A stretch of 64,000 nt of DNA from an uncultured Chloroflexia bacterium (GTDB taxonomy: Bacteria > Chloroflexota > Chloroflexia > QHBQ01 > JADMIH01). Shown piece after piece: positions 3,979-58,354 of the stretch. The position numbers and the translations under genes were made by a program. The notes beneath the pieces are model-generated. The model saw only the letters and a program-made list of their open reading frames with translations, had not been told where the DNA came from and searched no databases. The stretch's first letter is position 1. Each line of letters begins with the position of its first letter. The stretch covers positions 160,001 to 224,000 of the forward strand of contig CAWCNY010000006.1 of assembly GCA_963797095.1 (NCBI GenBank), given 5' to 3'.

Positions 3979-4941
3979 TTACTTGTTTCTTGCGAGCACT
4001 ACGATAGCTACCCCCAGCAGAATAACCGGCATAGCTACCAACCCAACCCGGGTTACTGTCTCGCCACCCAAACCGACGCCGAGGGCCACCGCCACCACGG
4101 GGTTCACATACGCGTAGCTCGTCGCCAGGGAAGGGCGCACTTTCTGAAGCAAATAGCTGTAGGCACTGAAAGCCACAATCGACCCGAATACTACGAGATA
4201 CAGGAAAGCCAATGCTGAGTCTAGATCCGGCATTGTTGTGAGCAACTCGCCGCTGACCAGCCCTAGCAGGAATAGCGCAGTTCCACCGCCTATCATCTCG
4301 GTCGCGCTTGCCATCATGCCCTTCGGCAGCGGCAAGTACCGGCTCCATACCGACCCCAAAGCCCAGCTAGCCGTAGCAAACAGCAGGGCTAGCGCGGCCC
4401 AGGGGTTGGCTTGCATATCGCCTTCAAGATTGAGCAGCGCCACGCCACCGAACCCCAGGAGCAACCCGACCCACTCGATCCTGCCGGGCCAGCGACCCCA
4501 CAGACCGGCAAACAACGCGGCGAAAATAGGAACTATTGCTACGGCAAGCGCTGCCAATCCCGATGCCACCCACTGCTCGGCGAATGTCACAAGCCCGTTG
4601 CCACCCAGGAGCAAGAGACACCCCACCAGCGTTGCCGCTCCCCATTGCTTGAGACTCGGCCATGCCTCGCCACGTAGCTTGACATACGCAAGTAGGAGCG
4701 ACCCGCCCAGTAGGAAGCGAGACCCAGCCATCAAGAAAGGCGGAATACCGCCAATCGCTATACGTATGGCAAAGTAGGTCGATCCCCAGATCACATAAAT
4801 AGCGAGCAGCGCGAGTGCGACCCCCAGATTGTTGTTTGACAAACCTCGCGTCTTTTCGGCTTCGTGTGCCTGTGCTCGCGCTCTGATCTCAACAGGTGTG
4901 GCAGCGGGTGCCACCGTTCCCATCCCGGCTCTGGCGCTCAT
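3979..4941 (-). CDS. EamA/DMT family transporter (YedA-like)
   Basis: YVIWGSTYFAI, YLVVFGSIVAFSAY and SYAYVNPVVAV motifs, about 10 TM; start could also be GTG at 4977. Confidence 0.92.
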   Translation of the reverse strand: MSARAGMGTVAPAATPVEIRARAQAHEAEKTRGLSNNNLGVALALLAIYVIWGSTYFAIRIAIGGIPPFLMAGSRFLLGGSLLLAYVKLRGEAWPSLKQWGAATLVGCLLLLGGNGLVTFAEQWVASGLAALAVAIVPIFAALFAGLWGRWPGRIEWVGLLLGFGGVALLNLEGDMQANPWAALALLFATASWALGSVWSRYLPLPKGMMASATEMIGGGTALFLLGLVSGELLTTMPDLDSALAFLYLVVFGSIVAFSAYSYLLQKVRPSLATSYAYVNPVVAVALGVGLGGETVTRVGLVAMPVILLGVAIVVLARNK

Positions 4942-5051
4942 AAGCTTCTTATCTCCAGACTGCCCCGGCCCAACCACTCAACTGTTCGTTCCGGAACCCG
5001 GTAGCTGTTAAACGCAGTAGGAGCTAATCCGGTAGGATCAACCCCTACATT

Positions 5052-5109
5052 TATTGTAAATATTAGCTGCGTTTGTTAGCTATTGTAAATATTAGCTGCG
5101 TTTGTTAGC
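5052..5109. repeat. 29-bp tandem duplication TATTGTAAATATTAGCTGCGTTTGTTAGC x2
   Basis: Read directly, upstream of the EamA gene. Confidence 0.9.
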
Positions 5110-5150
5110 AGCAATACTCGCGAGACTAACGGTTCTTATCAAGCAGCGTC

Positions 5151-5285
5151 TTACGCTACCTTGCCGTACCACTCTTTGCGGCGTTCCCATTCGGGGCTAT
5201 CAAGCCCTTCCCGGCTATCCGCACCCCATATCCATGCAGCTACGGCCAGCGCCAGCACCATTGCAATAAAGACGATCAATTCCAC
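5151..5285 (-). CDS. 44-aa single-TM small protein (MELIVFIAMVLALAVAAWIWGADSREGLDSPEWERRKEWYGKVA)
   Basis: GGGAGG RBS before GTG, hydrophobic helix, WGADSR motif; below the ORF-track length cutoff. Confidence 0.75.
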   Translation of the reverse strand: MELIVFIAMVLALAVAAWIWGADSREGLDSPEWERRKEWYGKVA

Positions 5286-5422
5286 TTTGAGCCTCCCTTC
5301 GAGACAACCGCCAACTTCCTACTAGCGTTTATCTCTTTCTACTTATATAATACAAGGTGAAACGGCAAATTTGAATACATACATAGAAGTATTTAGTACT
5401 CCTGACTTTGGAGTAGAAGGTA

Positions 5423-5905
5423 GTGGGACCTATGTACTATCAACTTGAAAGTGTACTGGATGCCACTGGTTGGCAGATTCTTGAGGCCCTCCAGGAGGAT
5501 GCGCGCATCTCATTTACCGAGCTTGGAAAGCGTGTCGGCATGTCTCCACCCGCTGTGGCCGAGCGCGTGCGCCGCCTTGAGGAGTGCGGCATTATCACCG
5601 GTTATAGCGCCCAGGTGAACCTGGAAAAGGCGGGCTTTCCGATCACTGCTTTCATACGCCTCAACGCCGGTGAAGACTGCCAGGGGATGGGCACTACCCT
5701 CGCCCACAATATCCCTGAGATGCTTGAATGCTACCGAGTCACCGGGACCGACGACTACATCATGAAAATAACCTCTGCCTCCGTCGCCGCTCTTGAAGAC
5801 TTGATCGACCGGGTGGCGAGCTATGGTTCCTGTATAACCTCCCTGGTGCTCTCTACTCCGCTGCACGGGCGCATCATTCGCAGGGGCCTGGGGCAGGAAT
5901 CCTGA
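5423..5905 (+). CDS. Lrp/AsnC family transcriptional regulator
   Basis: LQEDARISFTELGKRVGMSPPAVAERVRRLE HTH and ECYRVTGTDDY; divergent from the EamA unit. Confidence 0.95.
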   Translation: MGPMYYQLESVLDATGWQILEALQEDARISFTELGKRVGMSPPAVAERVRRLEECGIITGYSAQVNLEKAGFPITAFIRLNAGEDCQGMGTTLAHNIPEMLECYRVTGTDDYIMKITSASVAALEDLIDRVASYGSCITSLVLSTPLHGRIIRRGLGQES

Positions 5906-5963
5906 ACCCTGGACTTGAAGGGTCGTAGTTCGTTCCTCCAGGTCCAGGGTTCGGACTCGAAGA

Positions 5964-7074
5964 TCAGCTGAAGCTTTCTCCTTCGCGGGTAAGCAAAGCC
6001 TGCTTGCGCTCGACGCCCCACTTGTAGCCGCCCAGCGAACCGTCCTCGCGCACTACCCTGTGGCAGGGTATCACGAGTGCCACATGATTGGCCCCACATG
6101 CTTGCGCAACCGCGCGTACCGCCTTCGGATTGCCCACCGCCTCTGCTACCTGTGAGTAAGAGCGCGTGCTTCCGTAGGGTATGCCACGGATGACGCTCCA
6201 TACACTCTCCTGGAACGGCGTGCCGTGTATGTCCAGGGGCAGGCTGCTGTCGAGATAAGGCTTTCGTTCATCGATCTGGCACAGAATGGGTTGCGCCCAC
6301 TTCGCCATTTTCGCATCGTCTCTTTCGATGTGAGCAGCTGGGTACTCGGCGCGCAGGCTTGCGGCCAACGCTTCGTCCGAATCGCCCAGTTGCACCGCGC
6401 ACAGCCCACGCTCGGTTGCTGCTACCAACACTTTTCCCAGCGCGCTTTTTGCTATCGTATATCGCACGTCCATCCCTGAACCTCCCTGCCGGTATGCTCC
6501 GGGCGTCATCCCCATTTGTGTTCCGGCGTTCCCGTAGAGGTGGTTCGCCGACCCATAACCTGCGTCGTACATCGCCTCAGTCACGTTATCTCCTTCACGG
6601 AGGCTTGTCTTCAGTCGCTCCAATCGCAATGCCGCCGTATACTGGCGGGGCGTAACGCCCATTACTCGCTTGAACACACGCTGCAAGTGGTAGGGGCTGA
6701 TTCCTATGGCATCACCAAGCGCCTGAAGTGTGATTACGTCGCCCGCGCCCTCGTCCAGGCTCGCCTCGATCAAGCGGCTGACCTTCTCCGCTATTTCCAT
6801 CCCCGGCTCCGGCTTGAACTCGTCGGTTTGGGTGGCATCGCAGGCAAGCCCGGAAGCCTTTGGCCTCGGCCTCCTCCGGTCTGGCGAAAAAGAGCACTTG
6901 CTCTCGCCTGGGCCGCCTGGATGGGCAGCCTGGCCTGCAGTAGACGCCCGTCGAGCGCACCGCATACACGAATTGTCCATCCATGGCGATCTCTCTATCT
7001 AGCACGGCTTGCCAATATTTGCCTTCGTCCATCTTGCTCTCCGTTTTATTTTCCGCAGCCTCTAGCTCTCTCAT
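5964..7074 (-). pseudogene. ada: Ada bifunctional regulator / O6-methylguanine-DNA methyltransferase, with a +1 frameshift near 6825
   Basis: Zn domain (STGVYCRPGCPSR...FRACLRCHP) in one frame; AraC HTH and IPCHRV active site in another. Confidence 0.9.
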
Positions 7075-7270
7075 GTATCCATAATAGTGCATCCAACGTT
7101 TCTGGCGCTATCCGATTCTTGCGCTTCAAACTTGTGTTGCACGTGGATCATGAAGGATTTGTTTGTCGGGGAATACGAAGGAACGTAAGTGGTGCGAACG
7201 GCACTCACAATTGGCGATGGTATTGCATAAGGATTGTGAGCCGCAGTCATCGCGGAGTGCTTGTTCTTAC

Positions 7271-7351
7271 GCCCCTACGGGGCTATGGCATTTTCCTGGG
7301 CTTTACCGCAGGGCTTACGCCCTGGGCTACTCTCTTACGTCCCTACGGGAC
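7271..7351. repeat. REP/REPIN-like palindrome cluster
   Basis: Three hairpins: GCCCCTACGGGGC, CAGGGCTTACGCCCTG, GTCCCTACGGGAC. Confidence 0.7.
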
Positions 7352-7457
7352 TAAATGGGATGGGGATGGCGTACGAGCAGGATACCATTAAGAGTGTCCG
7401 CACCTGGGCCATCTCGGTGGATTTATACGGCAGCATTGCCCCTTGTGGGTGCCCCTA

Positions 7458-7525
7458 CTGTACCAAAGTACACCCCCAAAACGTGTCCCGTTTTGCCCCA
7501 CCAATGGCTCTTAGTTAATGAGGGT
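7458..7525. repeat. Dispersed ~60-bp repeat, copy 1 (inverted copy at about 29403-29468)
   Basis: CTGTACCAAAGTACACCCC(C)AAAAC.TGTCC.GTTTTGCCC.ACCAATG.CTC.TAGT shared by both copies. Confidence 0.85.
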
Positions 7526-7632
7526 GCTAGTATGAGGTTGGTAGCGTAGACCCAGTCGCCTTCTGCCCCCACCAATGGCTCTTCGTTGATTAGGGCAATA
7601 GTGTTGTTCGCTAGTGGGTCACTACAGGTTTG

Positions 7633-8667
7633 CTAAGGGGTGAGGATGTCGGAAACGGTGACTACGCTGTAGCCCATTTCTTGTAGCTTGTCGAGGATGC
7701 GTGGCAAGGCTTCGGCTGACGCCTGTGAGCCGAAGTGCTGGAGAATGATCGCGCCGTCGAGGTTGAAATTGGGGGTGTTAGTCACTCTGTTGAAGATGAA
7801 ATCGGGTGTTTTCGGCTCACCCACCGAGTTGAGGGAATCAAGCGTCCAGTAGATCGACCTGTAGCCTTGCGCTACCGTTACGTTCAGCACATGGTTGTTG
7901 CGCGATCCGTATGGGGGTCTCCAGTAGGGCTTGGTGGTTACTCCGGTCAAGTTGTAGAGGATCCTTTCTGTGCGGGCCAACTCGTTTGTAAGTTCGTCGT
8001 CGGTGAGGGTGAGCGAATCGCGGTGTGAGTAGGTGTGGTTGGCGATCTCATGCCCATCCGCAACCGCTTGCTTTACACCCTCAGGGTACTGCTCCGCGAA
8101 CTTACCTGTGAAGAACATCGTAATATGTATGTTCCTCTGTCTTAGCGCGGCCAACACGGAGGGCATAGCGTCGTCTGGGCCGCCGGCATCGAAGGTAAGA
8201 GCAACACGCTTCTTCCCAGGATAGCCCCTGACAACCTCACTCCAACCGCCTGCGGGCGCAGGCTCTGCCGTGGGGGTTGGTGCGAGGGGCCTGGTCGCGG
8301 TCGGGGTCGCAATCTCTATCTCTTCTTCAGCGGTCGCAGTTGGTTCTACTAACGCCTGTGTGGGTTGGGGTGTGGCGACTGCCTCAGGTGTGTTGGTTGG
8401 CTCTTCGATGAAGGTTGGGGTTGGCGCAGGCGTATCGGTGGCGGTGGGCGTGGCGGTGCTTGTCGGCGTGGAGGTGGGTGGCAACTCGGTTGGCGATGGC
8501 GGGACTATGGTAGCCGTGTCTGTAAGGAGCGGCGTGTCGGTTGGGGTGGGGTTGGGCGTGGATGTGGGTGCAATTTCAGTAGGTGTGGGCAAGGCGCTCA
8601 CATTGCACCCCCAGGAAATAACCAGCAATCCGAACAGCAGCAAGACGATGGCGGCAACGCGTTTCAT
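7633..8667 (-). CDS. Polysaccharide deacetylase (NodB/CE4) lipoprotein with Pro/Thr linker
   Basis: Lipobox-like ISWGC; ALTFDAG, HEIANHTYSH, WRPPYG and GAIILQH motifs. Confidence 0.92.
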   Translation of the reverse strand: MKRVAAIVLLLFGLLVISWGCNVSALPTPTEIAPTSTPNPTPTDTPLLTDTATIVPPSPTELPPTSTPTSTATPTATDTPAPTPTFIEEPTNTPEAVATPQPTQALVEPTATAEEEIEIATPTATRPLAPTPTAEPAPAGGWSEVVRGYPGKKRVALTFDAGGPDDAMPSVLAALRQRNIHITMFFTGKFAEQYPEGVKQAVADGHEIANHTYSHRDSLTLTDDELTNELARTERILYNLTGVTTKPYWRPPYGSRNNHVLNVTVAQGYRSIYWTLDSLNSVGEPKTPDFIFNRVTNTPNFNLDGAIILQHFGSQASAEALPRILDKLQEMGYSVVTVSDILTP

Positions 8668-8718
8668 GGCCGGATGATAGCACACCCTACCCTGTGGAAA
8701 GCCTGTTCATAAATGGCG

Positions 8719-8742
8719 GAAGCGGCCCAAAAGGACCGCTTC
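8719..8742. terminator. Hairpin downstream of tRNA-Val
   Basis: GAAGCGG-CC...GG-CCGCTTC stem; T-tract is weak. Confidence 0.45.
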
Positions 8743-8747
8743 GTAAG

Positions 8748-8821
8748 TGGGTATGATAGGACTCGAACCTATGACCTTTCGGATGTGAACCGAACGCTCT
8801 AACCGACTGAGCTACACACCC
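8748..8821 (-). tRNA. tRNA-Val(CAC), CCA not encoded
   Basis: GGGTGTGTAGCTCAGTCGGTTAGAGCG, anticodon arm TTCGG-TTCACAT-CCGAA, GGTTCGAGTCC T-arm. Confidence 0.96.
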
Positions 8822-8949
8822 GTGCCCCACATTATAACAACTGCCTACCCGGTTTGCAAGCCGGAGAAATCGAACTAACGGAGAGGATCAGGGAGACCTT
8901 TGAACGGCGGCAGGCAGCTTGGCTTGCGCTCTCTGCCAATCTATGGGGT

Positions 8950-10128
8950 CTATTCGACGACTTCCAGATCAACTGTTGGGACGCGCATCTGCTGGCCGTT
9001 TGCCAGCTTCACATCGGCGGTAGGTGATACGACGCCCGACTGGGCCGAGCGCGGGCCCGCCGGTAGACCGGTGACCTGCGCCGTCTGCCCAAGGTAGCCC
9101 TGGGAAAGTAGCCTCACTATAGTACCCACCGCTAGCTTCGGCCCGATCTCCTCCGGCTTACGCACGGCTGTGGTGCGTGCCAGTGGGATGATTACTTCAG
9201 GTCGCGCCAGACCGCCGCGCAGGCGCGTCGTCCCGTCCACCGCGATTTCCTGCCCGTCGTAGCCAGCGATTGTTTCAAACACGCGCTTGCACATGGGCGC
9301 AAACCCGAAACCTTCCGTGATTATCAAGACAAAGTCGGGTGGCACGCCCAACTCGCCGCCGACTCCGGGCGGTGGAAAATCCCATCCCTTGCTTTCCCCC
9401 GAGGCCACGCCCATTCTCCAGGCTTCCAGCCCGCCGTAGCCCAGGAAGTTTGCAAGCTCGCCCGAACTCATACTGCCGACGATTGCGCCCCGTGCCCCAA
9501 GCTCGATCAACCGTCGTAGGGCGTCGGCGTTTACATCGCTGCCACCGAGCACGATGGAATAGGCAACCCTGGCATCGAGCCTATCGCGCGCGATAGGCTC
9601 GTCTTCGGCTGTTACCATGACCTTGAGGACACCGTGTTGCTCGCCGCCTACTCCAAATATGCCCCTCACCAGGTTGGCGGGTGTTTCCACGATAGCGCCG
9701 TAATGAGGTATCAGGTCGGTCACGATCCCTTTGAGGTGGGCGCGGACGCTGACAGGCTCGGCGGGTGTGGTTATCAGCCCTATTCCGGTGGCCGCGTCGA
9801 AGCCGGTGAAGGTGCCCGCTACAGGCGCCCGCGACACTCGCGACCCCATGCCCGCCCGTTGCGCCAATACTCCAGCCTGCTCAACCTGGGTTCCTGGGCT
9901 GACCAGAAGGCGTTTGGCGGTTGCCGCGGGGGACAGGTCCAGGTCGGCGGCGATGTCTACGCTTACTGGTTCGGACGCGAGGGTGCTCTGGGCAACGATA
10001 TCGCCCGGCTCGACGCGCGCACCCGCACGGACCAGCACTTCGCCGGGCACGGGGAGTCGCCTCTCCCGCCTTAGAAGAATGTTGGTGGCTATAGTGGGTT
10101 GGGGAATGGGGTAGTAGGGGCTGGCCAT
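8950..10128 (-). CDS. Conserved hypothetical soluble protein with barrel-sandwich-hybrid-like motifs and a KOW-like C-terminus
   Basis: GEVLVRAGARVEPGDIVA, LLVSPGTQVEQ, RAPVAG and VGTIVRLL motifs; TAATG overlap with the upstream gene. Confidence 0.8.
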   Translation of the reverse strand: MASPYYPIPQPTIATNILLRRERRLPVPGEVLVRAGARVEPGDIVAQSTLASEPVSVDIAADLDLSPAATAKRLLVSPGTQVEQAGVLAQRAGMGSRVSRAPVAGTFTGFDAATGIGLITTPAEPVSVRAHLKGIVTDLIPHYGAIVETPANLVRGIFGVGGEQHGVLKVMVTAEDEPIARDRLDARVAYSIVLGGSDVNADALRRLIELGARGAIVGSMSSGELANFLGYGGLEAWRMGVASGESKGWDFPPPGVGGELGVPPDFVLIITEGFGFAPMCKRVFETIAGYDGQEIAVDGTTRLRGGLARPEVIIPLARTTAVRKPEEIGPKLAVGTIVRLLSQGYLGQTAQVTGLPAGPRSAQSGVVSPTADVKLANGQQMRVPTVDLEVVE

Positions 10129-12090
10129 TATTCTATCCCTTCGACCGGAGGAGCTTCGATACCGGGCATGGCGTCGAAGGCCGCCCACCATCGCCTGGCC
10201 TGGTCCATACGCGCCTCAGGGTTTTCGGGGAACTCCAGCGGCCTCCCTCTGGCGTCCACGATCAGGCCCACAAGCCCGCCTTTCACCTCTTGTCCCGCCT
10301 GGGTCTTGAGGGCTTTGCCCGGCTCCCCGCTCCCGACCCGGAAGCCTGACGACGGCTTGACCGTGAGGGGCGCACGCTCGTCCGGCCTTAAAGGGATCAC
10401 GCTGATGCTTCCGTATGGCACTTCTACCGTCTCAGCGTCGCCGGATTTGCGTTCAACAGTTACCGTGACGGCGGTGCGAGATTCATCCGGCAATCTGCCG
10501 TCTTCCTGCGATTCGGTATCGGCCTGCACCACCAGCGCTGTGCCGAGCCACACCAGGCAATCGCGGTCGAATATGTATGAGGCGGCGGCCAGATGATGGT
10601 GGGCCAGATTGCCCAGCGCGGGGAGCAGCAGCGTTGTGTCTACCGCCAGTTCGACGGACCCCAGACCCTCCGCGAATGGTTGGAGGGCATCGAGCATGAG
10701 AAGGGCGGCCTGTCCCGGCCGGGGGGTGTAACCTAACAAACCTCCTGTGCCGATCAAGAGATCGTAACGTGGAGCACCTTCGCCGTAACCGCGCTGCAAG
10801 TCTTCCTGGGCTGCGAGGAGGGCTTCGCGAGCCAGAGCGTGCTCGATAGCCAGGTCGCGGGCCGTCTGGGGGAGCAACTGTGGCCTCACCAGCTTGTTCA
10901 GCACCCAATCAAGTAGCTCGTCCTCTGCCATCGCGAAAGGAAGCCACCGCAGCACGTTCGCCAGACCCCGCTCGGCGAGGAGATTGCCCACGCCGTAAGC
11001 AAGGCCTGTGTCGCCCCGGATGATGGCCGAGTTCGCGTTCGGCGTTCGCCAGGTAGAGTGATGTAGCGCTTGCTCCCACGTCCGCGATCAATGTTTCGCG
11101 CCCGTAGTGGGCGTACAGATAGCGCGCGATGAGCCTGATGCTTTCGGCGGTGGGCACTACCGCCCCCTCGATCCAGCGCGATAGCACAGGGTATCCGGGT
11201 AGTTGCGGCACCCGCCGCTCGCGATAGAGTCCCGCCATCATCTCCTCGGCTGGACCTGTCTGTTCAATGGTCAGGCCGGGGCGCAGGTTAGCTACAGCTC
11301 GTACCTCAACCACCGATTTGAGCGTCTCGGATACTGCGTCCTGGGCCGCCGAATTGCCTGCGTAGATGGCGGTGGGCGTGCCTGGGGCTTGCTTGTTGAC
11401 CCTGGCCGCACGCTCGGCGCGGCTCGCTTGCTCACGTGAGGCCCCGGCCACTACTTTCGCCAAACGCACCAGTGGCGCTACCGGGCCGCCCTCGATGCCG
11501 CCTGCGATCAATACTACCTCCGGCGGCATGGCAAGCAGTTTGTCCATCTGCTCCTGTAGCCAGGCGGTGGATGCCTTGCTCAGAAGGGCATCGTCTTCGC
11601 TGGGTATTTCCTTTACGCCTTCGTCTAAAGTGATGTGTGCTACGATATGGGTGTATGCGCTCTCGGCTGCCTGTAACGCGCTAGGCTCCGAAATGTCGCT
11701 GCTGACAGCAGCAACTGCCACTCGCAAGGCGGGGGCCGCACTGGACGTGGCTATGAAGAGGTCCAGCCCGCTCCCATCCCTGCGCTGCGGCACTATGAGT
11801 CTGTTTTCTTCGGTCAGCTTTCGGCCTGTGATGCCCTCAAGCTCGCGCACTGCGTTGTAGACTCCGGCGGTTACGTCGTTGTAGGGAGCTTCGGCGGTTG
11901 TGAGGGCGGATGCCCGCGCCACGAAGCGGTATTCGTCGCCTACCACGTCGAACAGTGCGGCGCGCGTATTCAGTGAGCCGATGTCGACCGCCAGGATAGC
12001 GCCGACGGTCGCGACTGTGGGCGCCCCCTCCTGCTGTTCTGCTATCACAGCCTGCGGGCCGGTATTCTCCAACTTACCGATGTTGCTCAT
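10128..12090 (-). CDS. GlmL/MutL (glutamate mutase L)-like ASKHA actin-fold ATPase, with a +1 frameshift near 11035
   Basis: AVDIGSLNT, TSSAAPAL, IAGGIEGG, ADVGASATS and DLLIGTGG motifs spread over two overlapping frames. Confidence 0.8.
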
Positions 12091-12145
12091 AAATCACTCT
12101 TACTGGAGGTAAAGCTCAGGCAATTGTGCCTGGCTGTGAGGTCCT

Positions 12146-12814
12146 CTACAACTGCCACAATCTTTGTACTAATTCCACGAGGGACACCAGGCGCTCGATC
12201 AGAGCGGCATAGAAAGTGGTGGCGAGGGAGCCGAGTATAGCCCCGAAAGCGAGCACCAGCACCCATCGCCCCACTATCGAAAGCTGTTGTACAGGCATGG
12301 GCCTGGCGCCGTCGGCTCGTGCTCCGAAAGCGAAATACGACAAAGCGCACACTACCCCCGCCACCAAGACTATGTTACCCACCAGCGCCGCGAGAGAGGC
12401 AGGGTCGCTGCTTATGGTTACCAGACGCATGGTGTCGAGGGCCTGCGGTACGATTGCCCCGGCCAATGCGCCACCGAGCGCCAGCGATGCACCTACTACC
12501 ACTACGAGGTTGAGGCCAAAGGACGCAGGCCACGCGCCAGGATAGGCGATCCTTAAGAGCAGCAGCAGGCCGAGCGCCACGGGCACCATCCCAAGCCACC
12601 TGTCGGCGGCAGGGGTTCCCTCAGCGGGCACGATTATGCGCGCTATCTGTGGGGCGACCACCTGCGTCAGCACCACCAGCGATACGTATCCGACGGACAC
12701 GCCTACCAGCAGGCTTTGGGCTATCTTCCACAGGGGGTTCGCCCCTAGCAGATAGCTGAACACCATCAATGTAAGCAGCCCGGCTACAATTGCGCCGATC
12801 AGATTAGCATCCAT
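12146..12814 (-). CDS. Hypothetical 6-TM membrane protein of the GlmL-like operon
   Basis: Hydrophobic; FSYLLGANPLW, LLVGVSVGY and GRWVLVLAFGAILG motifs. Confidence 0.85.
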   Translation of the reverse strand: MDANLIGAIVAGLLTLMVFSYLLGANPLWKIAQSLLVGVSVGYVSLVVLTQVVAPQIARIIVPAEGTPAADRWLGMVPVALGLLLLLRIAYPGAWPASFGLNLVVVVGASLALGGALAGAIVPQALDTMRLVTISSDPASLAALVGNIVLVAGVVCALSYFAFGARADGARPMPVQQLSIVGRWVLVLAFGAILGSLATTFYAALIERLVSLVELVQRLWQL

Positions 12815-12829
12815 CGCTTTTGGGACCTA

Positions 12830-14728
12830 TCATCCTCTTCTCATTATTCTTCTCGCACCCTGTGCCAGAAATGCCGACACGATTACAAGTGCCGCCAGCA
12901 GCGCGGCTACCGATTGCGCGTTCAGGCGCGTGGTCAGCTCCACGGTCTTTGTAAGTACGCCACCGCCCAGGCCATTTTCCTCCAACTGCTGCATATAGGC
13001 ATATGCTCCGGTCGTGCCGCTCACAACTGCCTGCAACCCGGCCCCTGGCACCTGCAAATATGGCCTTGCCAATGGCTCAAGCCCTTGCGGGATAGCTGCC
13101 ACCACCGGCACGTTAGTGCGAGATGCCACCTGCTCGATCCAGTTTCTCATCTCGGCTTCCGTCCCGGCCAGGTCTACTATCAGCGCGAAGTCCTCCACTT
13201 TGTTGAGCGCACCACCAGCCGTCAACTGGTAGCTGTCGACCGGCCTGCTATTGATGTAATCGAGGGGAAGCAGCGCCTTGAAGTTGCCTACGAGTGTGCG
13301 CAGTGCTGCTTCGCTTCCGGGCAAGTAGCCGAGCACAAGGTAGTCTGTGCCGTACTCATATTCGTACCCCGGCTCAGTCTTGAGGGCATCTGTGACCTCT
13401 TGTGCGAAGCCCGGACCCTGGGGCACTGTGCTCACAGTCACGAATGAAAGATGCCGCCACATGATATGCTGCATGACAGCCTGCGACATAATCGACATCT
13501 CCGCCGACCTGCCGGCATCCCAGTCGTATACGACCAGCACCGGCCTGTCGAGCGGCACCGAATCGATAGCTTTATAGAATTCGATAGCCCCGGGTGCATT
13601 CACCGCAGGAGTGTTGCCGAAGGGCGGCCTGACTATCACAACTGCCAGCAGCGCGGCCAGAATCACGAGGTAGATCACTCCGTTGGGGAAGAGCCATTGC
13701 CTGACTTTGCTGCGACTTGCCTGCGCGCTCATGCGTGTTGCCTGGGCCGCCAGCGCCCGGCGGCTCCGCACCACGGGCATCGGGACCACGCGCCGTGTTG
13801 ATTCGGGCGCGGGAGGTTGCAGTAGTTGAGCCAGCGTCTCTACAGAACCGGGCCTGGGTGCCTTCACAGGGATGTTGCGCGAGGCTATCCCGGCCATATC
13901 TTCTTCGAGGGTGAAATTAGCAGGTGGGGCTGTGACGGTCCGGCCTTGTACGGGTATGGCTGCCGGTTGTGTTGGTGCGTCCTGTGTTATCGCGCCTGAG
14001 CCTTCGCCGCCCATATTGCGCACGAAATCGGGCAGTTGTTCGCTGGCGTCAGCCTCGGCGGGAGGAGCGAAAGGCTCTATCCCTTCGATACCCAGGTCGG
14101 CCAGTTCCGTGCTCCGCAATTCCTGCGAAGGCACCGATTGCAGCGTTTCCTGCACGGTTACATTGCCGAGCCAGGGTGGCAGGCCCGGCGGTGCATTATC
14201 GGCCTCTTCGTCTTCGGGCGTTTCGCCTGCCTCTGTCCCACCTTCTGTGGAGCTTGCCGCCTCTTCGTCTGCGCCTTTGTGCGCCCAGGGCATAATATGC
14301 GCAAGCTCCTCAGGCTCGTACCCTCCCTCGGGTGCTATAGGGCTGGACGAAGGCTCAAGTATGCTTACCACCCAGTTGGGCGGTGGGGCATCAGGGGCCT
14401 CGGCTTCTTTACCAGGTTCTGCGGCTTCCGCCGCATCTTCTGTGGAGCCTGGAGATGGAGAGGCGGCCTCAGATTCTTCTGCCAATTCAGTCCCCGTATT
14501 TTCGGTCTTACCGGCGATTTCAGGTTGGGCCGCAGCGTTAACTTTCTCAGGGCCAAGTCCGGTGGTTGGCAATACAGCTTTTTCATTGACCGCCTGGAGC
14601 CAGGGGAGGTCCATAAACTCATGGTCGTGTTCTTCGCCTTCCTGGCGAGGCAAGGCAGCGCCGCACCGGGCGCAAAATCGCCCTGTGTTGCGGTTAGTAG
14701 CCCCACAATTTTGACAGATTACATCCAT
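12830..14728 (-). CDS. Zinc-ribbon + acidic disordered region + TM-domain-TM protein
   Basis: CQNCG...FCARCG at the N-terminus, about 300 aa of E/A/P-rich sequence with PPW motifs, then TM, an alpha/beta domain and a C-terminal TM. Confidence 0.85.
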   Translation of the reverse strand: MDVICQNCGATNRNTGRFCARCGAALPRQEGEEHDHEFMDLPWLQAVNEKAVLPTTGLGPEKVNAAAQPEIAGKTENTGTELAEESEAASPSPGSTEDAAEAAEPGKEAEAPDAPPPNWVVSILEPSSSPIAPEGGYEPEELAHIMPWAHKGADEEAASSTEGGTEAGETPEDEEADNAPPGLPPWLGNVTVQETLQSVPSQELRSTELADLGIEGIEPFAPPAEADASEQLPDFVRNMGGEGSGAITQDAPTQPAAIPVQGRTVTAPPANFTLEEDMAGIASRNIPVKAPRPGSVETLAQLLQPPAPESTRRVVPMPVVRSRRALAAQATRMSAQASRSKVRQWLFPNGVIYLVILAALLAVVIVRPPFGNTPAVNAPGAIEFYKAIDSVPLDRPVLVVYDWDAGRSAEMSIMSQAVMQHIMWRHLSFVTVSTVPQGPGFAQEVTDALKTEPGYEYEYGTDYLVLGYLPGSEAALRTLVGNFKALLPLDYINSRPVDSYQLTAGGALNKVEDFALIVDLAGTEAEMRNWIEQVASRTNVPVVAAIPQGLEPLARPYLQVPGAGLQAVVSGTTGAYAYMQQLEENGLGGGVLTKTVELTTRLNAQSVAALLAALVIVSAFLAQGARRIMRRG

Positions 14729-14732
14729 AAGG

Positions 14733-14772
14733 CGTGACGAGTGACGAGTGACGAGTGACGAGTGACGAGTGA
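14733..14772. repeat. Heptamer repeat (GTGACGA)x5 within the operon
   Basis: Read directly. Confidence 0.9.
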
Positions 14773-14809
14773 TTATCGCTTACTGCTTATTTCTGGTGTT
14801 GATCGTTTG

Positions 14810-15448
14810 TCATTCCAGGTATGGCCTGTCGAAGCCGAGCAGTATGCGCAGGCTCAACCCGATTGCGCCGAAGGCTACTCCCAGGATGATAGCACGTATG
14901 CCCGCTAGCACCGGGTAGTCCAGCAGCCAATCTTTGATGCTTACCAGTACATCGAGCGGTGGCGCGGCTGCGAAAGGTGCCTGGCCGAGCACCACCACCA
15001 CTGCTACCAGCAACAGGACTGTGGCCTCCCGGCTCTTGAGCCGCATCGACCGGAACAAGGCGGTCGTCAGGAAGAACGCGAGCAAACTGAACAGTGCCGC
15101 ACCAAGGGGCTGGTATATCCACTTGAATATCCAGGCCACAGTGTCGGTTCCTGGGCTGCCTCCGATCAATCCCAGCGCCAGTACTGCTATCGCGCTTCCC
15201 ACCAGGATCAAGCTATAGAGCCAATCGGTTTCGCGCTTCAAGACGCGACCTATATGCACCTTCATGAGGTTGCCCAATCCGACCAGCAAGGCGAATCCAA
15301 CCAGCACCGCCACCCATTGTGCCAGCATCCCGCCCCAATCGGAGAATGTGCCCCGTGTGAAGAAGCCCACGATACTGATCACCCCGGCGACATACGCCAG
15401 GCCCAGGTTGAGTATCAGTATTGCGGTGGATGTGATGCGGTTTGACAT
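14810..15448 (-). CDS. Hypothetical 5-6 TM membrane protein of the GlmL-like operon
   Basis: IYQPLGAALFSLLAF and AGIRAIILGVAFG...LRILLG.DRPY motifs. Confidence 0.85.
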   Translation of the reverse strand: MSNRITSTAILILNLGLAYVAGVISIVGFFTRGTFSDWGGMLAQWVAVLVGFALLVGLGNLMKVHIGRVLKRETDWLYSLILVGSAIAVLALGLIGGSPGTDTVAWIFKWIYQPLGAALFSLLAFFLTTALFRSMRLKSREATVLLLVAVVVVLGQAPFAAAPPLDVLVSIKDWLLDYPVLAGIRAIILGVAFGAIGLSLRILLGFDRPYLE

Positions 15449-15499
15449 GGATGGTGATAGGTGATAGGTGATACGTGAACAAGTGATCACGTTTACGGG

Positions 15500-16330
15500 T
15501 TACGGGATAATACTTACAACCTCATTCCAGTTGATGCCTAGCAGGTTCCCGATTATGAACCCCAGCACTATCAAGATAATAAGCACCCAGCGCAGGCCAT
15601 CCTGGGCCAGTAAGGAGGCTGTGTGTGTGGTCCTGCGTTCAAGGTAGGCCCCTGAGGCGAATATCTCTTCGCCGATCAGGGTGTGGTCGGCGCTAATGCT
15701 GATCAGGGCTAAAGCCTGGTGGTCTGATGCTCCAATGATCTGTTGCGCGCCGTTTCTGCGCTGTACTTCGGTCAGGATCAATACTTCAGGCCCAAACTGC
15801 CCCACCATTACGGCGCTCGAAATCTTCTGCCCCTCGACCACCTCGGTGGCTCCCGCCACGTAGGCCAGCGGGTCGGCATGTGTCAGGAAGCGTGCTTCGC
15901 TACCCTCGTTCTCTGCTGACCACCCGGACCTGCTTGCCCCGCGTCTGAGCGCATTGTCTGTCAGCGCGTAAGCCACTGCATCATTGGTGGTGGCCTGCAC
16001 AGGAGCGCCCGTGATCGCACTCACCCGCGCCATAAACTCGACCACCGCCATGCCTGCCAGGGTGGCCGCACTCCCCACACCCTGAGTGCCCACGCTTCCC
16101 GTCCCAGGAGATATGTGCACCGCTCGACCTGTCTCAGCCGATAAGGCCAATCCTTCATTGGCTGCTTCGTACCCCGCGATTGGGCGGAGCGTGTAGGCTG
16201 ATGCTGTCTTTGTTGTTGCTTTCTGGCCCCATCCCGACCGCCACAGGTATATCAAGAAGAGCACCAGGAAGAGCACCAACCCGCCCAGCATGACAAGTAA
16301 GGCGCTCCCGTAAGCAGGCTCGACGCTCAT
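15500..16330 (-). CDS. DUF6754-like membrane protein
   Basis: TM, LRPIAGY, AETGRAVHISPG, TLIGEEIFASGAYL, ASLLAQD..RW and a C-terminal TM. Confidence 0.8.
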   Translation of the reverse strand: MSVEPAYGSALLVMLGGLVLFLVLFLIYLWRSGWGQKATTKTASAYTLRPIAGYEAANEGLALSAETGRAVHISPGTGSVGTQGVGSAATLAGMAVVEFMARVSAITGAPVQATTNDAVAYALTDNALRRGASRSGWSAENEGSEARFLTHADPLAYVAGATEVVEGQKISSAVMVGQFGPEVLILTEVQRRNGAQQIIGASDHQALALISISADHTLIGEEIFASGAYLERRTTHTASLLAQDGLRWVLIILIVLGFIIGNLLGINWNEVVSIIP

Positions 16331-16689
16331 CGCTCTTTGTCCTCCGCAGCCATTTCGGACTGATCCGAAAAGTCGCTCAGGTAGGCCTCCAGCTTGCCAA
16401 GACCATCATCACTCTCCAACAGCCGGGCTACGCTGCCGATAGAAGTTGTGCTCCTTCGTGATAATGGCCCCAGCGCACCCAGGAACGGCTCCAGCGCCCA
16501 AGCGAATTGCCCAGCTATCCAGTGCAAAGGTTTCAAGGCATCAAGCGCTACCCGCGCCGTCCCTCCCATGCCTGCGCGGTTTATAGCTTGCGCAAGCCTG
16601 TATGCTTCACTGTTAGGTTGTTCTCCTGATATGGAGCGTGTGGGCTTTTCGTTGCCTGGAGTGGCTGCCAAGAGTTCCCGTCCTTTCAT
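16327..16689 (-). CDS. Hypothetical protein, first gene of the operon
   Basis: ATGA overlap with the DUF6754-like gene; LDALKPLHWIAGQF motif. Confidence 0.75.
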   Translation of the reverse strand: MKGRELLAATPGNEKPTRSISGEQPNSEAYRLAQAINRAGMGGTARVALDALKPLHWIAGQFAWALEPFLGALGPLSRRSTTSIGSVARLLESDDGLGKLEAYLSDFSDQSEMAAEDKER

Positions 16690-16788
16690 GGGCTGGGGAG
16701 TGGAGTCACATTATAGCTATGCGCAGCTACTATGGTCAAGAAATCACATTAAGTTCCTCGAATGTGGAAAACAATATTAAATTTTAAG

Positions 16789-16839: not shown

Positions 16840-19800
16840 CTATCGTTCGGTGGTAGCACAACCTGGGAAGAATGTGTTGGCCACTATCTTGGAGGCTTGC
16901 CCTCTCGTCGCATTGGCTCCTGGCCTGAAGTATGGCAGGTTGGCAGGGCCTACACATGGCTCTCCCACTCCTCCACATGCGTACCCGTTCATGATGCCCC
17001 GGTCCGTCAGCCTCCATATCCAGTCGTAGAAGGTTGACCCTGGCAGTACGTCCTGGAACTGCTGGTCTCCTACCGGGTCCGAGTACCCCGCTGCCTCTGA
17101 CACTATCTTGGACAGTTGTCCTCTCGTCACGTTGGCATTCGGTCTGAAGTACGGCAGGTTCCCTGGGCCTACACATGGCTCTCCTGGTCCTCCACATGGG
17201 TACCCTGCGATGATGTCGCGGCTGGCCAGCCTCCCTATGAAGTCGTAGAAGGTTGAACCGAGTGGCACATCCTCGAAGCGCTGGGGACCTGGGTCATCAT
17301 TGTAGCCAGCTGAGTTGGACACTATCTTGGACAGTTGTCCTCTCGTCACGTTGTTGTTGGGGCGGAAGCATGGGTTGCCGCTCTCGCACCCTGAGGTGTA
17401 ACCGTTGATGATGCCCCTACATGCCATGCAGGTGATGTAGTCGTAGAAGGTAGAGCCTGGGGGCACGTCAGTGAAGGTGATGGAGCAAGCTGTGGGGGTG
17501 GCGGTTGGTGGCACAGGTGTGTTGGTAGGCTCAGTAATGGGAGTATTGGTAGGCTCAGTAATGGGAGTATTGGTAGGCTCAGTAATGGGAGTATCGGTGG
17601 GAGGCACAGGCGTGTCGGTGGGTGGTACAGGTGTGTCGGTGGGGGTAGCTGTAGGCTCGGCACATGGTGTGATCGATGGAGGAGTGCCCATCGTGAAGCG
17701 GAAAGCGGTGTTGCTGCCCAACCTGCCCGGCTGGTTGAAGGAAAGCTGGATCGCAGATGTGCCGTTGTCGTCCTCGATACCTGCGGTTGAGCTATAGCCA
17801 TATCCAAACGCGGCATCCAGGTCTTCATAGACTATGGTGATACGATTGGTGGTTTCTTCAAGCTGTACCTCGAACGTGATTGGATCGTTTAGGCTCCCGC
17901 CTCCGTTCGTACCAGCTACGTCTCGCCACTCGATGACGAACGTACAATTCGGTGCGCTGCCTGATACCCCTGTGTAGACGTCACCATACGCGATGGCACG
18001 CGGGTCCACAGCCAGGTCGTCCCAATATGGATAGATGGCATTGTTGGGGTAGTTGTAATTGGAGGTGTGGGTAGTAGGGCCGGGGTTGGGTATTCCGGTG
18101 TTGGCCCACATCCTGGCGAAAGTGAAATCCTTAAACGTCAGGAAGCCATTGGTGCTGACGTTGAGGGTCGTATATGTGCCCGTGTAGTAGTTGAAGGCGA
18201 ATGGCAGCGTTACCGCCGAGTATCCATCTTCGTAATCATCGAACGTCAGAGCGGTTGTGCCTGCTATCCAGTTGGGCGTTGGCATATCTACGACGTATGT
18301 GCTGTCATAAGCCGGGCCGAATGTGAAGTCATGTGTCATAGCCGCGCCGACATTTACGACATCTACAATTGGCTGGTAACCTGCGCCCGCATCGGCTGTG
18401 AACGTGTAGGTTCCGGCGGGTAGGTTCACGCTGTACATTCCGCTAACCGGGTTGTTTTGCACAACCAACGATGCAGGCGGGTCGATAGTCACCGTGCCGG
18501 ACAAAGGCGCGCAAGAGCCGTTCTCGAAGAGATAACCTGATACCGCAAAGGTCGGTAGAGGTGTGAGGCTGACGTTGAGCACCGGGCTTGTATCGGTGAG
18601 CCAACTCTGCCCGCTGAGATTGGCGGTCTGGTATCCGAATGCCGATACGGTTACATCATAGGTACCTGCCAGCACAGTCATGCTGTAAGCGCCGCTGGCG
18701 TGCGTCACTACCGAGTAGGTATCGCCGTCGCTTGTTCGCTGAGCGGTAACATGAGCTCCCTCGATTGCGGAGCCATCGCTCACGGTGCCGCTGACATGCG
18801 GGCCGTGTACCGCCATTTCGATAGCGGTATCAGCCTGCACAAGACCCCAACCATAGTTGTTGTTAGGGCGTGCGCCCCAGGATGCCTGGAAGTAGGCGGT
18901 GCGGGTCAGAATGCCCATTACGTCTGTGTACGTAAGCGAAGGGTTGGCCGACAGGACGAGAGCCATCACGCCTGATACGTGAGGCGTTGCCATAGATGTG
19001 CCTGAGATCGAACCGTAGGTGTTGCCGGGGAAGCTGGAGCGCACGTTTACGCCTGGTGCGTTTACGTCCGGCTTGACAACTCCTCCCCAGCACGAAGGTC
19101 CACGGCTGGAGAAACTGGCGATGGTCAGGTTCGAGGCGTTAATAGCGCCGACGCCGATCAGGAATGGATATCCACCAGGGGAGCCGACTGTTCCGGCTGA
19201 GGGCCCCGCGTTGCCGTTGGCGAACGACGGCATAATACCTGCGTCGATCCAGGCTTGCATGATGAGCCAGCTATCGGTGTTCCAACATTCGTTGTCGCCC
19301 CATGAGTTAGTGACGATATTGGGCCGGAGGTCGGGGCGGCGGTTCTCTCCATTGAGATCCCAGGGCGCAAGCATAAAGTCTTCCGCAGGGGTGATCTCTT
19401 CGTTACCCGACGAGCCGCCACCAATGCCGGTAGGGAAGACCTTGGCGGCGATCCACTTGGCGTGCGGTGCTACACCAATCTGATTGGTCAGGGTGGGATC
19501 TTCGCCCAACACCGTGCCCATTGTATGCGTACCGTGTCCATTGTCATCGTATGGTACAGGTGAAGGAGTGGCATCTGCGCGGGCATCCCACCAGTTGTAA
19601 TTGTGGTCATAGGAGCCATCGCCCAGGTAGCCCCTGTACTGGCGGAATAGGGCTTCGTGTGTATAGTCAACCCCGGTATCGATACTTCCTACGACTATAC
19701 CCTGGCCGAAGTAACCCTCGGCCCATGCCTGGGGTGCATGTACCGTCTGCACGCCTAATTCGACGGTGTCGGGAGAGTTGGAATCGACCACACTGGACGT

Positions 19801-20427
19801 ATCAACGGACCCGGCCTCCATGCTCGATGCCGTGTCATCCATCAGATAGTAGCGGTGATCGGCTTCAATGTACGCCACATCGTTCAGGCGGCCCAAAGCG
19901 CGCGCTGCCGCTTCGTTACCGTGGACGAAAATGGCGTTGATAATGGTGAACTGGCTCACTTTGCCGTTGATATTGCCCAATCCCTGCTGGCGCGCCACCT
20001 CTTGCATTACACGCGGCTGGGTGGCCTGTGCTGTGCGCTGAAGCAGATCGAGTACGTAGCTACCTTTGTCGTTCCAGCTATTGATGCTGTTAGCAGTGTC
20101 GGCTTGAGCTTTCAGATAGACCATAAAGCCCACAGTGCTGTTGCCCGCAGAATCAAGCTGTCCTCTGAGCTTGTTACTGATTTTGGTGGCCGGATCGAAG
20201 CTGATCTCCGGCTGCGTGAGCCACCAGTTACCGCGCAATGGTATACCGGCCAGCGCGGGATCTGCCAGTGCGGGGTCTGACTGAGTTGTACCGGCAGTGC
20301 TGCTGCTTGCGGCTGCTGTGCCGGTAGGATAGGCGGCCTGTGCGTTCCAGGGCCGCCAGGCGAGTGCGGCGAGGGCAAACAACGCGATGCCCAGGCCGAT
20401 CATTAGGTAGATGCGCCTTCTTTGCAT
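16840..20427 (-). CDS. Secreted S8 subtilisin-family peptidase (bacillopeptidase F-like) with Ig-like domains and C-terminal SLH-like repeats
   Basis: Signal peptide; catalytic triad motifs IDTGVD, HGTHTMG, GTSMATPH; PT linker; three FxDV..TRGQ repeats. Confidence 0.95.
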   Translation of the reverse strand: MQRRRIYLMIGLGIALFALAALAWRPWNAQAAYPTGTAAASSSTAGTTQSDPALADPALAGIPLRGNWWLTQPEISFDPATKISNKLRGQLDSAGNSTVGFMVYLKAQADTANSINSWNDKGSYVLDLLQRTAQATQPRVMQEVARQQGLGNINGKVSQFTIINAIFVHGNEAAARALGRLNDVAYIEADHRYYLMDDTASSMEAGSVDTSSVVDSNSPDTVELGVQTVHAPQAWAEGYFGQGIVVGSIDTGVDYTHEALFRQYRGYLGDGSYDHNYNWWDARADATPSPVPYDDNGHGTHTMGTVLGEDPTLTNQIGVAPHAKWIAAKVFPTGIGGGSSGNEEITPAEDFMLAPWDLNGENRRPDLRPNIVTNSWGDNECWNTDSWLIMQAWIDAGIMPSFANGNAGPSAGTVGSPGGYPFLIGVGAINASNLTIASFSSRGPSCWGGVVKPDVNAPGVNVRSSFPGNTYGSISGTSMATPHVSGVMALVLSANPSLTYTDVMGILTRTAYFQASWGARPNNNYGWGLVQADTAIEMAVHGPHVSGTVSDGSAIEGAHVTAQRTSDGDTYSVVTHASGAYSMTVLAGTYDVTVSAFGYQTANLSGQSWLTDTSPVLNVSLTPLPTFAVSGYLFENGSCAPLSGTVTIDPPASLVVQNNPVSGMYSVNLPAGTYTFTADAGAGYQPIVDVVNVGAAMTHDFTFGPAYDSTYVVDMPTPNWIAGTTALTFDDYEDGYSAVTLPFAFNYYTGTYTTLNVSTNGFLTFKDFTFARMWANTGIPNPGPTTHTSNYNYPNNAIYPYWDDLAVDPRAIAYGDVYTGVSGSAPNCTFVIEWRDVAGTNGGGSLNDPITFEVQLEETTNRITIVYEDLDAAFGYGYSSTAGIEDDNGTSAIQLSFNQPGRLGSNTAFRFTMGTPPSITPCAEPTATPTDTPVPPTDTPVPPTDTPITEPTNTPITEPTNTPITEPTNTPVPPTATPTACSITFTDVPPGSTFYDYITCMACRGIINGYTSGCESGNPCFRPNNNVTRGQLSKIVSNSAGYNDDPGPQRFEDVPLGSTFYDFIGRLASRDIIAGYPCGGPGEPCVGPGNLPYFRPNANVTRGQLSKIVSEAAGYSDPVGDQQFQDVLPGSTFYDWIWRLTDRGIMNGYACGGVGEPCVGPANLPYFRPGANATRGQASKIVANTFFPGCATTER

Positions 20428-20598
20428 TTATTTCTCCTTCTCTCTAAAGGACAATGGGTTTTTGTGCCCAGAGGCAATGGGCGAGGCGAATAGAATTATA
20501 GCAGGGCACTCGTAGTGAGTCAACCCCGCTATAAATTGAATTTATACTAAACTGCCAGATCTGTAGAAAAATATTTTAGGTTGGCATGGATAGTAATT

Positions 20599-23853: not shown

Positions 23854-24293
23854 ATCAAGGGTCACTCCTCTAGTGGCTGGCCGGGCAAAGGGAGGCTTGC
23901 TCGCGGTATCTAATTGTCGCGAAAGGTATGCTGCTTTGTCAAATGGACGGAGGACGAAAGACAATGGACAGTTATCGGAATGTCCTTCTAACGCTTTAAC
24001 GTTTCAGTTTTACATTCATTACCATTTCTTGCTTCATGCTGGAGTACGGCAATTAGCCCAGCGTTATTTACGTAGCACATTACGTAATTCGGGTGATGGT
24101 TCCCTGGAAGTAAGCCGTTATACTGGCGCGTACCGAAATGTACCGGTGGGATGTAGACCAAATACCTATTTACCCCTCCCACCATCCGCCTTTACAGTGA
24201 GGTAGACGCCCGGCGCGGGCTGGGCGCGGCGCGTTTTGCGCTTCTATATCAAATTTGCATCAAATTTGCGCTTCTATATCAAATGGGAAGATA

Positions 24294-56637: not shown

Positions 56638-56680
56638 AGTGGTCACTCGTCAAAGAAAACTAGCAAGCGAGGTATAAGCG

Positions 56681-58305: not shown

Positions 58306-58354
58306 AGGTTGAGATGATTATGGGTTGAGATGGACGCTTAGAGTGGTGGTACCT

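Follow-up and report, generated by a model that had tools for sequence, protein, structure and literature searches.

Characterised members of the MutL/GlmL branch of the ASKHA (actin-fold) proteins are accessory or reactivating proteins, and GlmL/MutL have the genes of mutase subunits (glmS/glmE, oraS/oraE) as neighbours. Other actin-fold ATPases have a membrane-associated partner, as does MreB in the MreB-RodZ-MreC-MreD module, where RodZ combines a cytoplasmic N-terminal domain, a disordered linker, a transmembrane (TM) helix and an outside domain. A third case is FtsA, which recognises FtsZ's C-terminal tail; in E. coli this tail, DYLDIPAFLRKQAD, binds FtsA, ZipA, MinC, ZapD, ClpX and SlmA, with I374 and L378 as critical residues, as stated in an excerpt of PMC4117426. 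Here we describe a cluster of seven genes, g1 to g7, at positions 8950-16689 on the minus strand of a 64,000-nt stretch of DNA from an uncultured Chloroflexia bacterium (contig CAWCNY010000006.1, positions 160,001 to 224,000). This whole stretch is called the window, and all coordinates are window positions. The sixth gene, g6, encodes a MutL/GlmL-fold ATPase. The cluster is a conserved, uncharacterised and widely distributed system with an unexpected motif scaffold. No paper on it was found in a full-text literature search, in agreement with an earlier sequence-only reading of this DNA, which had called the cluster uncharacterised.

The distribution of the system was examined with an alignment of 15 g6 relatives, which was scanned against one genome per species. 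At least 624 stretches matched, at least 548 of them encoding a relative. The best 80 stretches were kept and gave 71 loci, and all open reading frames (ORFs) of these loci were compared with the window proteins by iterated profile searches. The seven genes were detected in the window order at 20 of the 71 loci, which carry Chloroflexia, Chloroflexota or Anaerolineae labels, and L009 keeps this order as far as its cut end, right after g6. At 27 loci, 23 of which include at least 5 kb upstream, a zinc-ribbon protein without TM helix is followed by g6 and g7, and g1, g2, g3 and g5 were not detected. These loci are mostly from Ktedonobacteria and include the cultured Ktedonobacter racemifer, Ktedonospora formicarum, Thermogemmatispora carboxidivorans and T. 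tikiterensis; L033 carries the same TM-less zinc-ribbon form without g7. Two loci (WS1, Armatimonadota) show the order g6-g7-g2-g3-g4-x-g5 with a short form of g4, and in two (L071 and L064) g1 lies immediately before g6. Only g6 and g7 were found at four loci, and g6 with none of the other six genes at five, each covering at least 2.6 kb on both sides. The rest are a variant (L013) or loci ended by contig edges. On the same strand as g6, g7 lies downstream at 63 of the 71 loci, separated by a median of 33 nt, and a g4-type protein is encoded upstream at 56. The constant core is the g6 ATPase with g7, and the invariant partner of the ATPase is g7, not the membrane set.

The sequence-only reading had expected the synteny to be conserved, and the 20 complete loci bear this out. 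It had also dedicated the ATPase to four membrane proteins, proposing a machine for transport, secretion or envelope biogenesis built from g2, g3, g4 and g5. The constant order of the seven genes, the survival of a rearranged set in WS1 and Armatimonadota, and the overlapping stop and start codons, which suggest co-translation, would all fit such a machine. The dedication itself is too narrow and was not supported by the loci, since the pair of ATPase and g7 occurs without the membrane genes at the 27 Ktedonobacteria-type loci, and at nine more only g7 (four) or none of the other six genes (five) was detected beside the ATPase. In addition, Pfam and Foldseek assigned no transporter or secretion family to g2, g3, g5 or the g4 domain, and we know of no transporter that is powered by an ASKHA ATPase. 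A membrane machine of this kind is therefore an unlikely explanation of the cluster.

The two ORFs into which g6 is divided in the window match the Pfam family MutL (PF13941) with E values of 1.4e-45 and 2.1e-13 (156.4 and 50.3 bits, cut-off 27). Membership in this ASKHA family is borne out by both the domain score and the nucleotide-binding motifs: all 46 diverse relatives in the alignment keep the phosphate-1 D-x-G, the phosphate-2 D-x-G and the adenosine G-G unchanged. The phosphate-2 loop, DVGASATS, had been described as altered. It does differ from the usual form, but as a variant of the Chloroflexia lineage. The D-x-G is kept throughout, and GG follows D-x in a Thermogemmatispora relative and in a fused protein (P0255, see below). 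The Pfam family, the ASKHA fold and all three motifs are shared with the GlmL/MutL accessory protein and Or-4. The profiles of the latter two, however, span about 450-460 aa, whereas g6 relatives reach about 620-690 aa through insertions and a C-terminal extension of about 140 aa, which ends in a GG-x2-G-x3-D-x-RGRP block that is invariant in the 46 relatives. A search of the PDB sequences with the g6 profile gave no match at E<=1.

The Pfam match, and the annotation of relatives as 'glutamate mutase L' in records of metagenome-assembled genomes (MAGs), could mean that g6 truly serves as accessory protein to a B12-dependent mutase, for glutamate or ornithine, whose gene lies elsewhere in the genome. 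The curated NCBIfam families argue against this, because the scores of g6 are 5- to 10-fold under their cut-offs. For GlmL (NF040745, cut-off 475 bits) the N-terminal ORF scored 62 and the C-terminal ORF 14.8, and their sum is still far below; Or-4 (NF040744, cut-off 600) gave 58.5 bits and TIGR01319 (cut-off 204) 36.3 bits. The additional extension and the different fixed neighbours also argue against it. As the sequence-only reading had noted, no mutase is encoded among the 42 other ORFs of the window. The same was found in related loci, where Pfam detected no mutase subunit among 33 immediate neighbours and NCBIfam none in 100 of the 138 flanking ORFs of 420-800 aa, the 38 longest (590-800 aa) lying outside that scan. 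In the loci examined, the g6 clade never stands beside a mutase and has g7 as its fixed neighbour, unlike GlmL/MutL. As judged from sequence, g6 encodes an orphan MutL-fold ATPase outside the curated GlmL, Or-4 and TIGR01319 families that is not a B12-mutase reactivase, and ATPase activity is presumed from its motifs. The mutase-accessory explanation is essentially excluded. The sole B12-related gene of the window, at 58325-59347 (+), encodes a MerR-type regulator with B12-binding domains, which we take to be CarH-like, and is unrelated to the cluster. The full-text literature search found no paper on PF13941, or on GlmL-family proteins in this context.

The ATPase gene of the window lacks a single open frame. 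ORF 10909-12090 covers positions 1-263 of the 450 positions of Pfam MutL, and ORF 10128-10991 covers positions 296-450 and the extension. When the window was aligned with its relatives, one frame was followed to '...LANAERE' and the other from 'SAIIRGD...'. A DNA alignment with two relatives located one extra base at about 11032-11033, where the window has GCGAAC and the relatives GCG-AT and GGG-AC. In relatives the protein is unbroken, at about 620-690 aa (652 aa in P0002, the closest, with 89% identity), and at 61 of the 71 loci the gene is one ORF of 570-700 aa. It appears from these comparisons that g6 in the window was either recently inactivated or mis-assembled. The lengths of the six other genes equal those of their relatives. 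In another locus, L058 (cluster at about 4900-12800), g2, g4, g5 and g7 are each split into two ORFs, which suggests an indel-rich assembly. With four of seven genes split there, indel errors do occur in such assemblies, and this bears on the frameshift in the window. Programmed frameshifting was considered and rejected, because the relatives are single ORFs and no slippery heptamer was seen at the site. The frameshift had escaped the sequence-only reading, as had the repeated motif of g4.

The g4 protein starts with a CxxC...CxxC zinc ribbon, for which Pfam matches stayed below the cut-offs, and continues with an acidic low-complexity stretch. Hydrophobic helices at residues 344-373 and 602-626 then enclose a domain of about 230 aa, and an AlphaFold2 model of residues 331-632 (predicted local distance difference test, pLDDT, 85) shows an alpha/beta domain between the TM helices. 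Foldseek gave only generic Rossmann-like matches for this domain, and the search against PDB sequences one chance-level match.

The zinc-ribbon proteins share a short repeated motif, [LIVM]-P-x-[W/F]-[LMIV]. The next residue is usually R, K or Q, and acidic residues or 'L-I-D-x-x-A' often stand in front. The window protein contains GLPPWLGNV (at about residue 183), EQLPDFVRNM (about 232) and looser copies at about 40 and 146. Copy numbers range from two in the closest relatives of the window protein to 14-15 in L014 and L017. Fifty g4-type ORFs carry two or more copies, as against four other ORFs among 7062. Few of the other cluster proteins contain the motif (g6, 1 of 71; g7, 2 of 65; g2, 3 of 24; g5, 2 of 29; g1, 0 of 23; g3, 0 of 23). 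One ATPase of 764 aa (L012:6341-8635, plus strand) carries three P-P-W-L copies on its own C-terminal tail. The consensus of 26 Ktedonobacteria-type g4 proteins keeps seven repeats, five of them with an invariant P-x-W core, separated by proline- and glutamine-rich linkers that cannot be aligned. Behind the repeats stand a conserved block, 'RVPSRPR...AANVFASMLGVAS', and, at the C-terminus, the amphipathic segment 'KPAKRGF..IR.WF.R'; a TM helix is absent. This form of the scaffold may be anchored to the membrane through the amphipathic helix, in which case tethering would be kept by different means in the two forms, by two TM helices in one and by the C-terminal amphipathic helix in the other.

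The motif resembles FtsZ's C-terminal tail. Both systems combine an actin-fold ATPase with a peptide of the pattern acidic-aliphatic-P-x-aromatic-L-basic in a disordered region, which in FtsZ is also bound by ZipA and SepF. The differences are that Pfam assigns g6 to MutL, with no FtsA family reported, and that the FtsZ tail is a single copy on a tubulin homologue, whereas here 2-15 copies of a putatively binding peptide are carried by a zinc-ribbon scaffold. The likeness permits another explanation, that the scaffold acts by mimicry as a regulator of division or growth sites, its motifs binding FtsA, SepF or ZipA-like receptors of the host and g6 and g7 modulating it. Position by position (acidic, aliphatic, proline, aromatic, leucine/methionine, basic) the motif does agree with the FtsZ tail, and ftsZ and ftsA are present in Chloroflexota according to an excerpt of PMC10608941. 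Most copies, however, have tryptophan instead of phenylalanine, no division gene was found in the flanks examined, and a receptor encoded in the cluster is suggested by how tightly the motif protein is linked to g6 and g7. We regard such mimicry as quite improbable.

The partner protein g7 is predicted to be soluble and to consist of a barrel-sandwich hybrid, an alpha/beta domain and a KOW/SH3-like barrel. An alignment of 47 sequences gave an AlphaFold2 model (mean pLDDT 86) with a beta domain at the N-terminus, an alpha/beta domain in the centre and a small barrel at the C-terminus, in agreement with the barrel-sandwich and KOW features that had been noted from the sequence. RnfC_N was matched at E<=0.01 by nine of 46 g7 homologues (two above the gathering score) and KOW by ten (four above), and the g7 profile matches the KOW domain of Spt5 (E 1.2e-7). 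In Foldseek the C-terminus of g7 matched KOW/SH3-like domains, and the search against the PDB gave no whole-chain match (best E 1.3e-3, TM-score 0.15). The likeness to NusG/Spt5 at one end, seen in both the sequence profile and Foldseek, and the weak one to RnfC_N/lipoyl-type barrel-sandwich proteins at the other hold at the domain level only. The window g7 itself had no Pfam match at E<=0.1, and in the ESM Atlas it matched only clusters without a name or with weak RnfC_N/lipoyl labels. This is a large family: its representative clusters number 3927 at E<=1e-3 and 1351 at E<=1e-30. P0255 (995 aa), which ranks among the best 150 matches of the g7 profile, contains a full MutL domain with the phosphate-2 loop DIGGATTD, an RGRP-type extension and a full g7 region, in a sequence rich in lysine, asparagine and isoleucine. 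This protein appears to be a fusion of g6-type and g7 proteins, either a recurrent form or a read-through artefact. None of eight longer ATPase relatives (689-802 aa) is fused to g7.

The RnfC_N matches and the presence of two polytopic proteins of about 220 aa could also indicate a degenerate Rnf/Nqr-like complex, with g7 as the RnfC/NqrA-like subunit and g3 and g5 as six-helix subunits like RnfA and RnfE. This was contradicted at several points: no Rnf-Nqr Pfam match was found in 48 g3 and g5 homologues, no NqrA or RnfC chain occurred among the 50 listed Foldseek matches of g7, the Pfam scans gave no Fe-S or flavin family, and the membrane genes are dispensable in many lineages. The Rnf/Nqr explanation is, like the mutase-accessory one, essentially excluded.

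We tentatively propose, with a probability of a little under 40%, that the cluster encodes a membrane-tethered actin-fold ATPase module, which is docked by a multivalent motif scaffold and assembles or cycles to organise an envelope complex. The motif array would recruit the pair of ATPase and g7 to the membrane and concentrate it there, and the actin-fold protein, by assembling or by cycling between conformations at the expense of ATP, would then organise or remodel an envelope-associated complex. In its logic the module would resemble FtsA acting with the FtsZ tail, or MreB acting with RodZ. Candidate receptors of the motif are the KOW/SH3-like barrel of g7 and the ATPase itself; binding between motif and receptor, and any cellular role, are putative. 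In the lineage of the window the scaffold would be an integral membrane protein (TM helix, extracytoplasmic alpha/beta domain, TM helix), encoded with a DUF6754 protein, two polytopic proteins and one small hydrophobic protein. The module is architecturally analogous to MreB-RodZ-MreC-MreD, with an actin-fold ATPase, a membrane protein of RodZ-like layout and small polytopic proteins. It differs in that g3 and g5 have no Pfam match, g4 has none above the cut-off, and g4 has two TM helices. Moreover, mreBCD is absent from all Ktedonobacteria genomes according to an excerpt of PMC10608941, and these bacteria keep only the soluble three-gene version of the cluster.

Several points weigh against the proposed docking module. 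In some loci labelled Armatimonadota, WS1, Cloacimonadota or 'Firmicutes UBA994', no motif protein is encoded near the ATPase, whether g7 is present or absent, which indicates that the scaffold is not universal. The ATPase gene of the window itself is broken. Neither g7 nor the extracytoplasmic domain of g4 has a specific structural match, and hence no envelope function is indicated by them. Polymerisation and ATP hydrolysis by g6 proteins are putative, and GlmL-type relatives are thought to be chaperone-like, not cytoskeletal. The motifs on the ATPase tail in L012 would be explained at least equally well if the receptor were not the ATPase. The likeness to the FtsZ tail consists in a pattern of 6-7 residues, and it is drawn to the tail of E. 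coli, not to the tails of these organisms. A complex prediction of the Thermogemmatispora ATPase with g7 and a 30-residue motif segment, with no control runs, gave a score of 0.00, which speaks neither for binding nor against it.

The family's place in the MutL/GlmL branch also suggests an Hsp70-like or reactivase-like chaperone, in which the ASKHA domain and a beta-rich C-terminal extension would bind the LPxW repeats or other clients and remodel a non-mutase membrane client, with g7 as co-factor. The accessory or reactivating roles of the characterised relatives speak for it. A nucleotide-binding domain followed by a conserved C-terminal domain would parallel Hsp70, and the motifs are short hydrophobic peptides in disordered sequence. 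On the other hand, the extension gave no usable structural match in the ESM Atlas, no client is evident, and the motif is far more regular than usual chaperone substrates. It seems improbable that the system is such a chaperone.

A more far-reaching form of the docking proposal would make the g6 proteins a new membrane-associated actin-like family, whose assembly is nucleated or tethered by an FtsZ-tail-like peptide array on a zinc-ribbon scaffold, in analogy to tandem WH2 repeats on eukaryotic actin. In it g7 would be an obligatory co-factor, its KOW/SH3-like barrel possibly being the motif receptor. In Chloroflexia and Anaerolineae the array would connect across the membrane with the outside domain and with three more membrane proteins, and the whole would be a machine that organises the envelope, distinct from the MreB and FtsA systems. 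We hold this extended form to be rather doubtful. If the motif array does dock the ATPase, this would be a new mode of membrane tethering for an actin-fold protein, and it would span Chloroflexota, Armatimonadota and neighbouring phyla, about whose envelopes and cell division little is known. It would also provide the first functional context for DUF6754 and four nameless protein families. The proposal is directly testable, since the cultured Ktedonobacter and Thermogemmatispora carry the simple three-gene version. Independently of the mechanism, the label 'glutamate mutase L', given throughout MAG records to the MutL/GlmL branch, is likely a mis-annotation for a large non-mutase clade with at least 548 relatives, which has a partner protein and a motif-bearing scaffold of its own.

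The remaining membrane proteins were largely as the sequence-only reading had described them. The g2 protein is a clear member of DUF6754 (PF20539), with E 6.3e-32 and 111.2 bits against a cut-off of 27 over profile positions 29-248 of 257, and hydropathy segments at 3-35 and 238-269 give it the expected layout of a domain of about 200 aa between two TM helices. The searches gave 158 relatives of g2, and PF20539 was found in all of the 120 that were listed. This family is without known function, and the full-text literature search found no paper naming it. Against PDB sequences g2 gave short low-complexity-type matches to designed 'Bagel' proteins, which were taken as chance. Based on the positive-inside rule, the g2 domain would be cytoplasmic and the g4 domain extracytoplasmic, on opposite sides of the membrane, and the disordered, motif-bearing part of g4 would lie in the cytoplasm. 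The description of g4 as a zinc-ribbon, acidic, TM-domain-TM protein and that of g3 and g5 as proteins with about six TM helices were likewise upheld, g3 and g5 showing about 6-7 hydrophobic segments each. No common Pfam match was found in 23 homologues of g3, none at all in 25 of g5 and none in 22 of g1, and the window proteins g1, g3 and g5 had no match at E<=0.1. Homologues of g1, present at 23 loci, share a conserved hydrophobic stretch (P-L-x3-G-x-Q...P) and an L-E motif. Detectable paralogy was rejected both for g3 and g5 (hhalign probability 0.7%) and for g2 and the C-terminal domain of g4 (0.8%), and BLASTP was negative in both cases. In two loci from WS1 and Armatimonadota, the DUF6754 protein is of about 415 aa with additional N-terminal TM segments (L048:12933-14180 and L067:12161-13417). 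The g4 counterpart in both has only about 280 aa and lacks the zinc ribbon as well as the motifs, and in L067 a methyltransferase gene lies between g4 and g5.

The seven genes are co-directional and densely packed from 16689 down to 8950 (Table 1). The run of close or overlapping genes reported by the sequence-only reading stood, with the qualification that the GlmL-like gene among them is interrupted by the one-base insertion. The ATGA overlap of g1 and g2 and the TAATG overlap of g6 and g7 were read directly in the sequence, and the gaps g2/g3, g3/g4, g4/g5 and g5/g6 are about 51, 81, 15 and 55 nt with refined start calls. The g3 protein probably starts at 15448, which matches eight of its nine closest relatives, and g7 at 10128, which matches relatives of 390-393 aa. 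Promoter-like consensus sites were not in excess in the region (three observed against 2.7 in shuffles), and only their positions are thus suggestive.

Table 1. Features of the seven-gene cluster and its boundaries (window positions)
Feature	Position	Strand	Description
g1	16327..16689	-	ORF, 120 aa; small protein
g2	15500..16330	-	ORF, 276 aa; DUF6754
g3	14810..15448	-	212 aa from likely start, ORF reaches 15490; polytopic
g4	12830..14728	-	ORF, 632 aa; zinc-ribbon scaffold
g5	12146..12814	-	ORF, 222 aa; polytopic
g6	10128..12090	-	MutL/GlmL-fold ATPase gene; two ORFs in different frames, 10909-12090 and 10128-10991
g7	8950..10128	-	392 aa from likely start, ORF reaches 10191; soluble three-domain protein
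Promoter-like site	16710..16739	-	TTGACC-18-TATAAT (11/12 consensus), in the 150-nt gap upstream of g1
Terminator-like hairpin	8861-8843	-	Between the end of g7 and the tRNA gene
tRNA-Val(CAC) gene	8747..8821	-	Marks the downstream end of the unit

The flanking genes for an S8 protease, a polysaccharide deacetylase and an Ada-like protein were considered as parts of the unit and rejected, since they are common to the closest relatives only. Directly upstream of the cluster, at 16840-25412, lie three neighbouring genes for large surface proteins with SLH domains. One encodes an S8 protease whose tandem linkers are rich in Pro and Thr, the others a Kelch-repeat protein and a CAP-domain protein. 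This trio points to S-layer-type anchoring and is likewise common to the closest relatives only. Between the Ada-like and polysaccharide deacetylase genes, a match to the Rfam small RNA Acido-Lenti-1 was found at 7307-7352 (+). Its score is 47.2 bits, the gathering score being 37, and the genome around it appears to be of Chloroflexia type. A tmRNA gene at 403-749 (-), scoring 161 bits and encoding the tag GNKNYALAAA, adjoins smpB at 795-1301 (-), the two forming a standard trans-translation pair. Genes and gene fragments of transposases (DUF4096, an ISL3 zinc finger, DDE_Tnp_1_6) and a C-terminal fragment of an AAA_21 ATPase, at 30719-33828 and 44702-46390, look like the debris of mobile elements. 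At 56083-58183 (+), a gene for a proteasome-type subunit is followed by one for an AAA_2 ATPase, which is consistent with an HslV/HslU pair.

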